35,191 bases of DNA from a virus (taxonomy: Duplodnaviria; Heunggongvirae; Uroviricota; Caudoviricetes), in the IMG/VR virus record IMGVR_UViG_2713896779_000022, one strand, 5' to 3'. The stretch's first letter is position 1, and each line of letters begins with the position of its first letter. Made by a program: the position numbers and the translations under genes. Shown here one piece after another: positions 8,945-35,191 of this stretch. The notes below the pieces were generated by a model, which was not told the origin of the DNA, did no database searches, and saw nothing but the letters and a program-made list of their open reading frames with translations.

Positions 8945-9508
8945 ATGCTAAATAATAGAGATATGAATATTAATGAACTTAAAGACTGTATTCACTATGA
9001 AGTAATCGGTAGCGAGCGTCCTTTCTCCTGGCGAAAGGCAATTGTTCGCGCAATAAAACATAGAAGAGTTCGTTATTTATTTTGGTGGCGCATAGCCAAA
9101 TACCTTTTTGATAAAGGCGGATACTGTCGGAAGATTGCGGGGAAAATAGAACGTTTCATTCTTGATAAATATAATGTAACAGTCCCTTTAACTGTAAATA
9201 TAGGGAAAGGCTTTGATATTTCTTATCTCAATAGTGTTGTTATCGGTCACAAAGTAACCATCGGTGAAAATTGTTCAATAAAACCAGGGGTAACTATTGG
9301 GCTACGTGGTGATTTTAATGATATGGATATTGTTATAGGACATAATGTGACCATTGGTTGTAATGCCACCATTCTTGGTGGCAAAGTGCGTATAGGAAAC
9401 AATGTCACAATAGGTGCTCATGCATTGGTATTGCATGATATTCCTGATGATTCAACATTCATCACTAAATTTCAGTCTGAAGTTATCTGCTCGTCCTCCC
9501 GCACATAA
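8945..9508 (+). CDS. hexapeptide-repeat (left-handed beta-helix) O-acetyltransferase, WcaB/CysE/LacA-like; cargo gene at the Z/fun position
   Basis: Repeated [LIV]-G-x-x-[VI]-x-I-G hexapeptides ([45 protein letters not shown]); strongly AT-rich versus flanking tail genes; convergent with G. Confidence 0.8.
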
Positions 9509-24318: not shown

Positions 24319-24702
24319 TTAGTCTTGTAGCTGCGCTGTCCTGCTATGCAGCAAAGCGGCGTACTTTAATGCGTCCTGTGCTTTCTGTAATTTAAGTGCA
24401 TAGTCAGTGGCGATTTTTTCCAGTTCAGCGATTCGGTTGTCTTTGGTTTCCAGCCAATCAAGTAGCGCCAATACTTCAGGATCCCCGACATCCAACACTG
24501 TTACGCGTGATTTTTCATAATGTTCGTCGGCAAGAGTTCGGCCAATTTTGAAATCTCCATCATCACCATAACCGGAGCAGGCATAAACAACCTGTGCTCC
24601 AGATATTCGCTGAATTGACATTTCCTCGCCGCAAATAGGGCATTTCGGTACTGGCACAGGTGAATAACGTTCACGTAATGCCTGATAGTTGATTTCGCTC
24701 AT
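24319..24702 (-). CDS. hypothetical protein with N-terminal Cys cluster (zinc-ribbon-like) and C-terminal coiled coil
   Basis: 127 aa; CPICGEE...YACSG then heptad-rich helix (IAELEKIATDYALKLQKAQDALKYAALL); downstream of parR on the same strand. Confidence 0.55.
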   Translation of the reverse strand: MSEINYQALRERYSPVPVPKCPICGEEMSIQRISGAQVVYACSGYGDDGDFKIGRTLADEHYEKSRVTVLDVGDPEVLALLDWLETKDNRIAELEKIATDYALKLQKAQDALKYAALLHSRTAQLQD

Positions 24703-24765: not shown

Positions 24766-25077
24766 TTATTCAGGAAATAACGCCCGGATATTTCCGGCCA
24801 TCTGACTGGTTATCTGTGCGGTTGATACTGGCTGTGATGCGGGGCGTTCTGTCCTGGTTTGTGTCAGGGATAACGCTTCATCGTCAGCCCATGCAGCCAG
24901 TCGGTAAGCCTCTGCCGGATTAATTTTCATAAGTGCCAGTCCGGCCAGAAAAGCCACGCGTTGACCACTTTTGCGGGCTTCTGGTGTAAGGCTGTCCAGC
25001 CAGGCGCATGCTTCGCCTTCGTTCTTGACGGCGGCGGGCTTCAGATAGAAACTTATCCGTCTGGTTGGTGTCGTCAT
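24766..25077 (-). CDS. parR: ParR/StbB-like centromere-binding adaptor
   Basis: Start at MTTPTRRISFYLKP with RBS AAGGAG 7 nt upstream, 4 nt after parM stop; resembles R1 ParR N-terminus (RRTIAFKL...LTAGLALY vs RRISFYL...FLAGLALM). Confidence 0.7.
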   Translation of the reverse strand: MTTPTRRISFYLKPAAVKNEGEACAWLDSLTPEARKSGQRVAFLAGLALMKINPAEAYRLAAWADDEALSLTQTRTERPASQPVSTAQITSQMAGNIRALFPE

Positions 25078-25081
25078 TGGT

Positions 25082-26041
25082 TTACTCCTTGTCCATTGCG
25101 TACAGCCCATTAACCAGAGCAAACTGTGGCACCCCGTCCGCGATGAAAGTCGCATTAACTCCGCAGGCTTCGCGGATAGCGGGTGCCACAATCTCCGCCC
25201 CGCCACCGACAACCATCACCCGCCCGTAACCCGAAAAGCCCGCCAGCGCGCGGATCACGCGTTGTTTCAGTGTTTCTTCCTTTTCACGAATAACCGCCAT
25301 CAGGCTGGCGTAATGCGCGTCATTGTGGATGTGCTGGCGCAACCAGGCTTCATCATGGCGATGTTCGATAATGGTATTGGCGATGTGGTGACTGGTACGC
25401 ATACCGTTAGTGGCCATCACCGACAGTACGGCATCGGCCATCAGGGAAACGCCTACGTGTGGATCGCAAAACACCTGGCTGATACCTGCCAGTTGCCCCT
25501 GAACCTTTGCCACATCCAGTGTGGTTCCGCCTAAATCCACAATCAGCAGGGATTCAAACGGACTCATGTCAGCCAGTGCTTTAAAGCCAGCCGGAATGGA
25601 TTCAGGCATAACCCGTACGTTACGGATAGTGAATGCTTCGCCGTTCTGGTACTCCACCGGGCGCATAACGTTCGATTTTTTGCGGCTGATGTTGGCCATA
25701 TCCGGCTGTGCGTTTGTGTCGAAATACTCGCTCAGTGGCAGGGTGACAACCACATCCACCTCCTGTGGCGTGATGCCTGATTTGACCAGTGCGTGATGAA
25801 TGGCAATGACATTCACATCGCTGTACTGGTATTGCGTGTCGGTCGTCTGGACAAAGCGATCGCTGACCGGATCAAAACCATAGCGCACGCCATCAAGCAT
25901 GTAGTTCGCGGGCTGCGTGCCACCGAACGGCGCAGACCATTCCGACTTGAAGCTGTTCGGGCTGATGGCGTTGCGGCGTTCGCCGTTCTCAGCCCATGCC
26001 AGCTTGATGTTGGTGGAGCCGTCGTCGATACAAATTTTCAT
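25082..26041 (-). CDS. parM: ParM/StbA actin-like plasmid segregation ATPase
   Basis: 319 aa; collinear resemblance to R1 ParM along the whole length (IDDGSTNIKL.W, ISPNSFK.EW, YSDVNV.A.HHAL, IRNV.VMPESIPAG, DLGGTTLD, GGGAE, LVNG.Y). Confidence 0.9.
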   Translation of the reverse strand: MKICIDDGSTNIKLAWAENGERRNAISPNSFKSEWSAPFGGTQPANYMLDGVRYGFDPVSDRFVQTTDTQYQYSDVNVIAIHHALVKSGITPQEVDVVVTLPLSEYFDTNAQPDMANISRKKSNVMRPVEYQNGEAFTIRNVRVMPESIPAGFKALADMSPFESLLIVDLGGTTLDVAKVQGQLAGISQVFCDPHVGVSLMADAVLSVMATNGMRTSHHIANTIIEHRHDEAWLRQHIHNDAHYASLMAVIREKEETLKQRVIRALAGFSGYGRVMVVGGGAEIVAPAIREACGVNATFIADGVPQFALVNGLYAMDKE

Positions 26042-32793: not shown

Positions 32794-33198
32794 ATGAAAA
32801 ATGATATTGGTCAGCGGTTGCGTGAGGAAAGGGAAAGATTGGGACTTAGTCAAGTTGCCATGAGCGACATTGGTGGAGTCAAAAAGCTAACTCAGCTTAG
32901 ATATGAGAAAGGAGATAGCTTTCCTGATGCTGCGTATTTGGCAGCGCTGTCTCGTTTTGGCCTTGATGTTCAGTATGTTGTGTTGGGAATTCACTCACCT
33001 GAAACTTATAACGATGATGAGCAGGAGTTGATTACTCGCTTTCGAGCAGCTTCGTTAGATGTGAAAAACGCGGTGATTGGGGCTTTAAAAGGTGCGATCA
33101 GTGAAAAGGAAACTCAGCCATCAGGACGTGAGTTAAATATTTCTGGTGGTAATAACCGTATCGCTGGTCGTGACTATAACGAAACTAAGGGTAGGTGA
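32794..33198 (+). CDS. C: immunity repressor C (HTH_XRE family)
   Basis: N-terminal XRE-type HTH (IGQRLREERERLGLSQVAMSDIGGVKKLTQLRYEKG); position divergent from the early operon and upstream of int, as for P2 C. Confidence 0.8.
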   Translation: MKNDIGQRLREERERLGLSQVAMSDIGGVKKLTQLRYEKGDSFPDAAYLAALSRFGLDVQYVVLGIHSPETYNDDEQELITRFRAASLDVKNAVIGALKGAISEKETQPSGRELNISGGNNRIAGRDYNETKGR

Positions 33199-33213
33199 TA
33201 GTAGGGAGGTGAC

Positions 33214-33537
33214 ATGGCCGTCAACTCAAACGGTTCAAACAATCGCGTTGCTGGGCGTGATTTTCACGAAAAGAATATTCAGATAGAGCGATATGATGGT
33301 TCTCATACCGTCAATATCGCAATCCCTTCGAATAATGATGATGACGATCGCCCTTTGCTTAAGGCTCAGCGTAAGGAGCTAAATAGCTTGGTTGCTGCTA
33401 TTGCAGAAGCTAGCAATACTGAAGCGTTTATTATTTGGCAAAAAGTACATGCGGAGATTGGTGTAGCTGGTATTGATGATATGATAGTAAATCAATATAA
33501 AACAGCGGAGAGTTTTCTGCATGCAATGCTTGAGTGA
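33214..33537 (+). CDS. hypothetical lysogenic-operon protein sharing an N-terminal motif with the repressor tail
   Basis: 107-aa ORF with strong RBS GGGAGG; N-terminus SNGSNNRVAGRDFHEK repeats the repressor C-terminus SGGNNRIAGRDYNET; ends at TGA 33535-33537. Confidence 0.6.
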   Translation: MAVNSNGSNNRVAGRDFHEKNIQIERYDGSHTVNIAIPSNNDDDDRPLLKAQRKELNSLVAAIAEASNTEAFIIWQKVHAEIGVAGIDDMIVNQYKTAESFLHAMLE

Positions 33538-33864
33538 TGTAAAGATCATGATGCCTGTAAGGCTCTTGTAAGTTTATTACTACGTAACAGTGAAGACTGT
33601 GGACTTCGACAAAAACTTCTGCGGTATTGCCATATCAATTTCGGTACAGGACGTTTAAACGATCTTACTCGTTCTCAGTTACAGTCTGCATTGTCGTGGT
33701 TAGAGCAACAATCGGCATCAAGCCACACAGAGAGTTCGACCTTACCAGAAGTCCGACTTCGTGCTTCAGAATTAATCCGACTTTATCCAAAAGAAATAAT
33801 ATTCTTTATCTGCGTAGGGGTTTTGGTAGGCGGTGTCATTTCTAGGGCGTTTTTTAATTTGTAA
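33538..33864 (+). other. in-frame continuation of the preceding ORF beyond a single TGA, encoding a C-terminal transmembrane segment
   Basis: 108 sense codons in the same frame as 33214-33537, no ATG, ending ...LYPKEIIFFICVGVLVGGVISRAFFNL*; either the broken 3' half of one gene or readthrough extension. Confidence 0.35.
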
Positions 33865-33893: not shown

Positions 33894-34241
33894 ATGAAAG
33901 TAAAAAATGTTCAACTATTAGTTACTTTTTTATCTATGTTTTCTTTTTCCGCCGTCGCAATGCCTTTTAAAACTATTGAACGTGAGAGTTTTAATGGGGT
34001 ATGGCCATTTAATACTGATGAGGTTCAATTACAGTGTCTTGATGGTAATCCTTATGTGATGAATTTTGACGATAATAAGTTATATGCACTTACAGGTTTG
34101 GCTCGAATAAAAGGTAAAACATTTGGTGCGTTACCGTTAGATAACAATAATCCATTTTGGCTAGATAATGATGCCGCCCCAGGGTTAAAAAAGAGTCTGG
34201 GGGATGTCACTAAGGCTGCATTTGATTTATGTGATAAGTAA
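33894..34241 (+). CDS. small secreted/periplasmic protein of unknown function (cargo gene)
   Basis: 115 aa with Sec-type signal peptide (MKVKNVQLLVTFLSMFSFSAVA) and two Cys; AT-rich; between C and int. Confidence 0.65.
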   Translation: MKVKNVQLLVTFLSMFSFSAVAMPFKTIERESFNGVWPFNTDEVQLQCLDGNPYVMNFDDNKLYALTGLARIKGKTFGALPLDNNNPFWLDNDAAPGLKKSLGDVTKAAFDLCDK

Positions 34242-34246
34242 CTAAA

Positions 34247-34358
34247 ATGTCGGTTCGTAAGATTCCATCAGGTAAATGGCTTTGCGAATGTTATCCCTAC
34301 GGGGCATCGGGAAAACGCATTCGTAAACAGTTTGCGACAAAAAGTGAGGCGCTTGAGG
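34247..34358 (+). pseudogene. int: P2-type tyrosine integrase, N-terminal ~37 codons only; truncated by IS insertion
   Basis: MSVRKIPSGKWLCECYPYGASGKRIRKQFATKSEALE resembles the P2 Int N-terminus (...GRNGKRIRRKFDKKSEAVAFEKY); frame runs into IS end TGTACTGG at 34359 and stops at TAG 34370-34372. Confidence 0.7.
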
Positions 34359-35191
34359 TGTACTGGCAATAGCGGACACTACCATTTGTTCTTTTTTTAA
34401 GCAGCCATCTGATGATATTTTTCCCTGAAGGCTGCCGGGGAGATATTCCCCAGACGAGAGTGACGACGCTGACGATTGTAGAAAATCTCAATGTATTCCC
34501 GTATTACTGAGATGGCTTCATCCCGGTTATTAAAACGATAGTGGCTCAGGCTCTCATTTTTCAGCGTTCCCCAGAAGCTTTCCATCGGAGCGTTGTCGTA
34601 ACAGTTACCTTTACGCGACATTGATGTTTTCAGACCAAACTGCTCCTGTATGACCCGGTAATCGTATGCGCAGTACTGTGAACCTCGATCAGAGTGGTGG
34701 ATTAGCCCGGCAGGTGGGCGCTGGCTCCTGAGCGCCATAAACAGAGCTTTACCTGTCAGCTCTTTTGTCATGCGCTCTCCCATGGCGTAGCCGACAATTT
34801 CGCACGTATAAACATCTTTGATGCCAGCGAGGTACAACCATCCCTCCTGTGTGGCAACATACGTCAGGTCCGCCACCCAGACCTGATTTGGTGCTGTAGG
34901 AGCGAACGTCTGGTTCAGCAGATTTGGCGCAACTGGCAGATTGTGGTTCGAGTTCGTAGTCGCTCTGAACTTGCGTTTCTGCTTACAGCGTAGCCTTAGC
35001 TCCTTACGAAGACGTGCCAGTCGGTCACGACCAACGATGATGCCATTCTCTGCCAGCTCCGTCTGGAGCCGCCGGGTTCCATATGTTTCGCGAGTGCGGA
35101 TATGTGCCACCTTAATCTCCAGTTTTAGCCGCTCATCACTTTGTTTTCTGTCTGAGGGTTCATGCTGTACCCAGTTGTAATAACCGCTCCT
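34359..35191 (-). mobile_element. IS3-family insertion sequence (distinct from the left-edge IS), inserted in int; continues beyond window
   Basis: Terminus begins TGTACTG at 34359 (IS3/IS150-type end); OrfB-like transposase on the minus strand stays open to the window edge. Confidence 0.8.
34397..35191 (-). CDS. IS3-family transposase OrfB (partial, N-terminal part and OrfA outside window)
   Basis: DDE-domain blocks (VWVADLTYV, HHSDRGSQY, CYDNAPMESFWGTLK); frame remains open upstream of the track start to position 35191. Confidence 0.85.
   Translation of the reverse strand, partial: RSGYYNWVQHEPSDRKQSDERLKLEIKVAHIRTRETYGTRRLQTELAENGIIVGRDRLARLRKELRLRCKQKRKFRATTNSNHNLPVAPNLLNQTFAPTAPNQVWVADLTYVATQEGWLYLAGIKDVYTCEIVGYAMGERMTKELTGKALFMALRSQRPPAGLIHHSDRGSQYCAYDYRVIQEQFGLKTSMSRKGNCYDNAPMESFWGTLKNESLSHYRFNNRDEAISVIREYIEIFYNRQRRHSRLGNISPAAFREKYHQMAA

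Follow-up and report, generated by a model that had tools for sequence, protein, structure and literature searches.

A premature stop codon in a prophage-encoded paralogue of Flk: a probable young pseudogene in one lineage of Escherichia coli

Introduction

The flagella biosynthesis regulator Flk keeps type III export by the flagellar apparatus in the early-substrate mode; it is cytoplasmic and tethered to the membrane by one anchor at its C-terminus, and an interaction with FlhA-C, known for Salmonella Flk only, has been observed in two-hybrid assays (PMC13344023). The chromosomal protein comprises 331-333 residues and is encoded at the pdxB-flk locus. During our analysis of a prophage of Escherichia coli we examined a gene encoding a distant relative of Flk, which shares with it homology over the Flk_N region and, as far as prediction goes, the cytoplasmic location and the single C-terminal anchor. 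In contrast to chromosomal Flk, in which two stretches match this relative, the prophage protein is only 216 residues long and has one copy of the domain, bears an N-terminal motif that Flk is without, is encoded by a phage gene that adjoins the repressor gene and, in the copy studied here, is truncated. Literature mentioning CP-933T contained no functional data on the Flk-like gene, and a search for Flk together with prophage found nothing relevant.

In-frame UGA codons that are followed by an open, protein-like frame are familiar from programmed recoding, for example SECIS-dependent selenocysteine insertion and the coat-protein readthrough that gives the A1 protein of Q-beta. They are also found in decaying prophages with IS insertions, in which one derived base change stops a conserved open reading frame and the gene is annotated by PGAP as a pseudogene with an "internal stop". 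The window that we analysed (the whole stretch of 35,191 nucleotides of IMG/VR record IMGVR_UViG_2713896779_000022) contains such a frame in its Flk-like gene, for which a sequence-only reading had offered two explanations: a recent nonsense mutation that has cut off a membrane anchor, or readthrough of TGA to produce soluble and membrane-anchored isoforms. The comparisons reported here argue for the former and against the latter. The locus differs from the programmed systems in that the stop is not conserved, no SECIS or stimulatory structure accompanies it and its context is unfavourable, whereas nothing essential distinguishes it from the "internal stop" pseudogenes of decaying prophages.

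Results and Discussion

The prophage and its immunity region

The window represents almost the whole of a P2-like prophage (Peduoviridae) that is integrated next to yecA. Among named phages it is closest to Escherichia phage 520873, a Xuanwuvirus. In the immunity region the leftward Cox-like and Arc-like genes face away from a rightward series encoding a CI-type repressor, the Flk-like protein, a YebY/DUF2511-like protein and the integrase (Table 1). The four rightward genes are separated by 15, 29 and 5 nt, and terminator prediction gave nothing from CI to int; such close spacing (5-29 nt) on a single strand, with a variable gene before int, is consistent with the lysogenic operon in which the sequence-only reading had placed the Flk-like gene. 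The loci from other genera that were compared are all arranged as Cox, Arc, CI, Flk-like, (variable gene), Int. The yebY-like gene itself has a GC content of 34-35%, and its slot holds different DNA or none in other genera, a yebY-like gene being found only in locus L008; from these comparisons the slot looks like a variable cargo position.

The integrase gene, which is intact (333 aa) in the O121 strain RM8352 and others, is cut in the window by a copy of IS600 after about codon 36 (about 34343-34353). None of the 5,426 complete E. coli genomes has this IS600-int junction, not even the eight O121-type genomes that are otherwise identical. O121:H19 is known to carry about 27 copies of IS600 (PMC9397093). 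At the other end of the window, an IS3-family element (positions 1-991, with a 296-aa orfB at 61-951) adjoins Hok/Gef, ogr and gpD; it is not present at that site in any complete genome, and the match between the window and complete O121 genomes begins only at position 992. With IS elements at both ends, the prophage of the window is thus bounded or disrupted by them.

Other accessory genes are present elsewhere in the prophage. A plasmid-type partition pair on the minus strand, encoding ParM/StbA actin-like (25082-26041) and Plasmid_stab_B/ParR-like (24766-25212) proteins, is located with an Ead/Ea22-like gene (24319-24702, minus strand) between the packaging genes and replication gene A. A gene for a hexapeptide-repeat acyltransferase (8945-9508, plus strand) adjoins the tail-fibre genes and could be a lysogenic-conversion gene that functions in surface acetylation. 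PADLOC returned no anti-phage defence match for the partition pair, the Ead/Ea22-like gene or other accessory genes, nor for the Flk-like and YebY-like proteins.

Table 1. Features of the immunity region discussed in the text (positions in the window)
Feature	Position	Strand	Description
CI-type HTH repressor gene, 134 aa	32794..33198	+	Pfam HTH_31/HTH_3; PHROG transcriptional regulator/repressor; NCBIfam RstR/DicA-like
Repressor C-terminal tail LNISGGNNRIAGRDYNETKGR	33133..33195	+	Same motif as N-terminus of next protein
Shine-Dalgarno sequence GGGAGG	33204..33209	+	4 nt before Flk-like ATG; read from sequence
Truncated ORF of Flk-like gene, 107 codons + TGA	33214..33537	+	Predicted disordered N-terminal region with shared motif and first 2.5 of 6 Flk_N helices
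Codon 91	33484..33486	+	ATA (Ile) in window, ACA (Thr) elsewhere; Thr91 invariant in family
Premature stop TGA	33535..33537	+	CGA (Arg108) in intact E. coli alleles; AGG, CGG or CGC in other genera
Untranslated remainder, 108 codons + TAA	33538..33864	+	Second half of Flk_N, linker and predicted membrane anchor
Predicted C-terminal transmembrane tail anchor (residues 195-213)	33796..33852	+	Hydropathy 2.36; AlphaFold2 helix; conserved hydrophobic C-terminus
YebY/DUF2511-like gene	33894..34241	+	Pfam DUF2511, PF10709 YebY, phrog_2950; signal-peptide-like N-terminus; own RBS
5' fragment of prophage tyrosine integrase gene	34247..34353	+	Cut by IS; collinearity with complete genomes ends at 34353
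IS600 (IS3 family) in int	34343..35191	-	99.6-99.8% identity to annotated IS600; window ends within element

A single stop interrupts an otherwise open frame

A single frame on the plus strand extends from the ATG at 33214 to a TAA at 33862-33864, with the TGA as its one internal stop. The description given by the sequence-only reading, namely a 107-codon ORF followed in the same frame by 108 sense codons devoid of ATG, is correct, and its assertion that such a frame is improbable by chance can now be given numbers. The probability of 108 consecutive stop-free codons is 7e-4 when calculated from the regional base composition (41% GC, compared with 52.5% for the whole window), and this degree of openness was reached in only 21 of 20,000 mononucleotide shuffles of the part after the stop. 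The remaining five frames of the same region contain 8-22 stops each. The one-stop frame is therefore real and far beyond chance.

Neither ATG nor GTG occurs in frame between the TGA and the TAA, and the earliest in-frame TTG (33691) is without a Shine-Dalgarno sequence. Re-initiation was considered and rejected, since the overlapping UGAUG yields AUG-UAA, the AUGs at 33548 and 33551 are out of frame and open an ORF of 7 codons, and the first start codon in frame is this TTG.

The transmembrane helix that had been noticed after the stop corresponds to the segment IIFFICVGVLVGGVISRAF (residues 195-213), which is the sole such hydrophobic segment in the protein (Kyte-Doolittle mean 2.36). A single C-terminal tail anchor is thus predicted for the intact allele; in the window it is encoded but would not be translated.

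Relationship to Flk and extent of the truncation

Residues 35-166 of the intact protein match the NCBIfam model for the flagella biosynthesis regulator Flk (PRK10715) with an E-value of 7.8e-16, but the score of 58.3 bits lies far below the equivalog cut-off of 353. In BLASTP against Flk of E. coli K-12, residues 45-165 align with Flk residues 26-146 (28% identity, E = 1e-10) and a second, weaker match of the prophage protein covers Flk residues 151-202. The Pfam family Flk_N (PF27202) is assigned in precomputed annotations, on the 107-aa product too; these annotations are its only source, as our local Pfam-A search returned sub-threshold noise only (zf-P11, ELYS). A profile search of 1.84 billion representatives retrieved only 140 related clusters. 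Short forms of about 185-225 aa match as far as their C-terminus, and two matching stretches occur in the long forms (about 320-490 aa). By this division the prophage protein is a paralogue within the Flk_N family rather than Flk itself.

An AlphaFold2 model of the intact protein is of moderate quality (pLDDT 69.8, pTM 0.41). Residues 1-42 are predicted to be disordered and six helices are predicted between residues 50 and 173 (pLDDT about 80), followed by a linker and a terminal helix (192-214) that coincides with the hydrophobic segment. The first three helices are placed at residues 50-67, 71-82 and 92-110, and the stop falls inside the third of these, so that three and a half helices of what appears to be a single domain would be lost in addition to the anchor. 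The loss would therefore be larger than the membrane anchor identified in the sequence-only reading, as it also covers half of the Flk_N helical domain. Foldseek searches of PDB and BFVD with the model gave nothing with an E-value of 0.001 or better. A short three-helix likeness to the C-terminal domain of Red-beta/RecT (E about 0.4-2) was not counted as evidence.

Distribution of the stop allele in Escherichia coli

The region is found in about 520 of the 5,426 complete E. coli genomes. An uninterrupted CDS of 216 aa is present at the same place in strain 2013C-3264, in O157:H7 EDL933 and in O121 WL1277, and alignment of the window with the intact alleles places a T at 33535 where these have a C, which converts CGA (Arg108), one of the sense codons that had been guessed for this position, to TGA. 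We counted the two alleles with 61-nt probes centred on codon 108 in the 504 complete E. coli genomes carrying the gene. The CGA probe matches exactly in 401 genomes and the TGA probe in 9, and in the remaining 94 the CGA probe aligns with one additional mismatch; among the matches listed of those 94, the annotation is mostly an intact "membrane protein".

Identity of 100% with the window over 849 nt is found in nine genomes, and these are the nine with TGA. According to their labels four are O121 or O121:H19, four are CDC strains and one is O103 (ML775). The four CDC strains have record names without a serotype, and their IS600 load is equally high (18-27 places). ML775 has IS600 in only 2 places, as against 18-27 in the O121-type genomes, and is the sole TGA genome unlike the O121 clone. 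In this strain IS1203 cuts the same prophage short immediately past the early genes (L007, 105-1318), a case of independent decay. The exact 107-aa product is on record for 404 contigs, and all 24 of those inspected have the same prophage context.

Taken together, the frequency and context of the TGA codon indicate that the allele is real, derived and confined to essentially one clone, a polarity and restriction that we read from the distribution of alleles rather than from a formal tree. The interruption has also been recorded by annotation: in RefSeq the 651-nt CDS is marked by PGAP as a pseudogene with an "internal stop" both in ML775 and in RM8352, the latter being identical to the window over the Flk-like region.

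Conservation beyond the stop

A search of 5.8 billion proteins found 194 relatives, and the approximately 120 that were listed are nearly all 207-216 aa in length, carry the precomputed Flk_N assignment and derive from Escherichia, Klebsiella, Enterobacter, Serratia, Erwinia, Kosakonia and others. The PHROG family phrog_5825 matches the intact protein from end to end. In an alignment of 30 sequences Arg108 is at least 90% conserved, the hydrophobic C-terminus is kept across the family and the longest invariant blocks (V119-S126, F143-Q157 and W162) are all located after the stop. Ortholog DNA from seven other genera has an arginine codon at position 108 in every case, although the codon itself is variable (Table 1); the orthologs named, from Rosenbergiella, Mixta, Izhakiella, Enterobacter, Ca. 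Erwinia dacicola and Kosakonia, are uninterrupted and 207-217 aa long.

The ratio dN/dS after codon 108 is 0.055, 0.079 and 0.34 in pairs of orthologs with unsaturated dS; values are taken from these closer pairs only, dS being saturated between E. coli and the other genera. The sequence-only reading would have been contradicted by orthologs that end at the position of the stop with an unconserved frame downstream; the orthologs instead continue past it, and what they encode beyond this point includes the family's best-conserved part and is under purifying selection. An independent pseudogenisation of the same module is seen in the endosymbiont Ca. Symbiopectobacterium endolongispinus, in which the Flk-like ortholog and the integrase are both frameshifted.

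Age of the stop and a second substitution

Across the 1,448 nt from CI to the yebY-like gene, the window matches RM8352 and a Japanese draft genome at every position, and it differs from the intact alleles at 6-7 positions. In the part after the stop only 0-1 differences separate the window from the intact alleles, and so too little time has elapsed for decay of the untranslated sequence.

One of the other changes affects codon 91. Position 33485 is T in the window and in both O121 genomes compared, RM8352 and the Japanese draft, but C in ML775, and the resulting T91I substitution is, as judged from the family alignment, a second derived and probably damaging change, at a residue that is otherwise invariant. 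Since ML775 carries TGA yet retains Thr91, T91I is likely to have arisen after the stop. A stop followed by substitution at an invariant site matches the prediction of relaxed selection; the order fits decay, though as a single event it argues for it only weakly.

A motif common to the repressor and the Flk-like protein

The only unusual feature of the locus is a motif of approximately 18 residues, N-[VI]-[ST]-G-x-x-N-R-x-A-G-R-D-[FY]-x-E, that occurs both at the C-terminal end of the repressor (LNISGGNNRIAGRDYNE) and at the N-terminal end of the Flk-like protein (VNSNGSNNRVAGRDFHE). The repressor tail and the Flk-like N-terminus (33214-33275) are identical at 10 of 17 positions by BLASTP. The motif is kept in both proteins at all seven intact loci from other genera, where the bodies of the repressors are only 35-53% identical to that of the window. 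In the loci compared, which belong to this group of P2-like phages from across Enterobacterales, the two genes are always adjacent and 8-15 nt apart, with the Flk-like gene downstream. That both proteins conserve the motif points to a binding partner in common, to co-assembly or to a degradation signal used by both.

It is conceivable, although we consider it a long shot, that whatever binds the repressor tail, be it an antirepressor, a protease or the repressor itself, has the anchored protein as its partner or decoy, or that the prophage uses this protein to interfere with flagellar or injectisome type III secretion. The truncation in O121 would then free a soluble, motif-bearing fragment of altered activity.

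Consequences of the mutation and competing explanations

We consider it very probable that a C-to-T nonsense mutation in one E. coli lineage has generated a null allele, and that the gene in the window is an ordinary young pseudogene rather than a case of recoding. The intact gene, located between repressor and integrase in a P2-like prophage at yecA, would encode a Flk paralogue of 216 aa that is cytoplasmic, with a disordered N-terminus, a six-helix Flk_N domain and a C-terminal anchor. In the O121:H19-type STEC lineage a single transition has changed codon 108 from CGA to TGA, so that the product stops at residue 107, within the third predicted helix of Flk_N. From the position of the stop we infer loss of function, as a product without the anchor and the most conserved half of its domain most likely represents a null allele. 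Ordinary leakiness of UGA may still give traces of full-length protein with Trp at position 108 (R108W), a product that would not be programmed, and Rho-dependent polarity on the downstream yebY-like and int genes is possible. The prophage would appear to be decaying in this lineage, as seen in the substitution at an invariant residue, the IS600 insertion in int and the IS element at the other end.

A point against a null allele is that the 107-aa product retains a good ribosome binding site, the motif and two and a half helices, and hence may have residual or altered activity. A rival proposal is that the fragment is functional, either neofunctionalised or dominant-negative, and that, soluble and still bearing the motif, it would act untethered on the same partner. 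The proposal draws on the strong ribosome binding site, the conserved motif and the retained first helices, as well as on the fixation of the allele in a successful and widespread clone (the 404 contigs); clonal persistence, however, needs no selection and shows tolerance only. The model places the cut inside a helix of one compact domain, for which reason the fragment is likely to be unstable, and the later T91I substitution at an invariant residue suggests that constraint has been relaxed rather than maintained. We therefore regard a functional fragment as quite unlikely.

Functional readthrough of UGA, by tRNA-Trp or by insertion of selenocysteine, to give a soluble 107-aa isoform and an anchored 216-aa isoform, was the other explanation offered by the sequence-only reading and is more doubtful still. 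In its favour, no stop codon of E. coli is leakier than UGA, the frame downstream is completely open, and a Cys codon after the stop (U-C ... C) confers a superficial likeness to redox motifs. The openness of the frame, however, is accounted for by the youth of the mutation, and the codon is rare and derived, being confined to 9 of 504 genomes and found in no ortholog from another genus. Folding of the 91 nt that surround and follow the UGA is no more stable than that of shuffled sequences (minimum free energy -17.2 compared with -17.9 +/- 3.0 kcal/mol, z = 0.24), and an Rfam search gave no relevant family and no SECIS-like element around the UGA. A suppressor tRNA encoded by the prophage was also considered and discarded, as the window contains no tRNA gene. 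The base that follows UGA is U, and UGAU is reportedly the strongest of the UGAN termination contexts in E. coli. Finally, Trp or selenocysteine would displace a nearly invariant arginine. It is highly unlikely, on this evidence, that the stop is programmed to be read through.

A sequencing or assembly error at 33535, which would need to affect only one base relative to the common allele, has a negligible probability, since nine genomes that different laboratories finished independently, as well as a draft assembly, have the same base, and 404 contigs encode exactly the 107-aa product.

Significance for the lineage and the family

As a young nonsense pseudogene, the stop codon matters little in itself: it is at most a marker for the O121:H19-type clone and a further sign of prophage decay. 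The intact gene is of modest interest as a tail-anchored phage paralogue of Flk that is encoded beside a repressor with which it has a motif in common. The TGA allele of O121 and the CGA alleles of O157, O111 and others represent a nearly isogenic natural pair with which the function of this paralogue could be tested.
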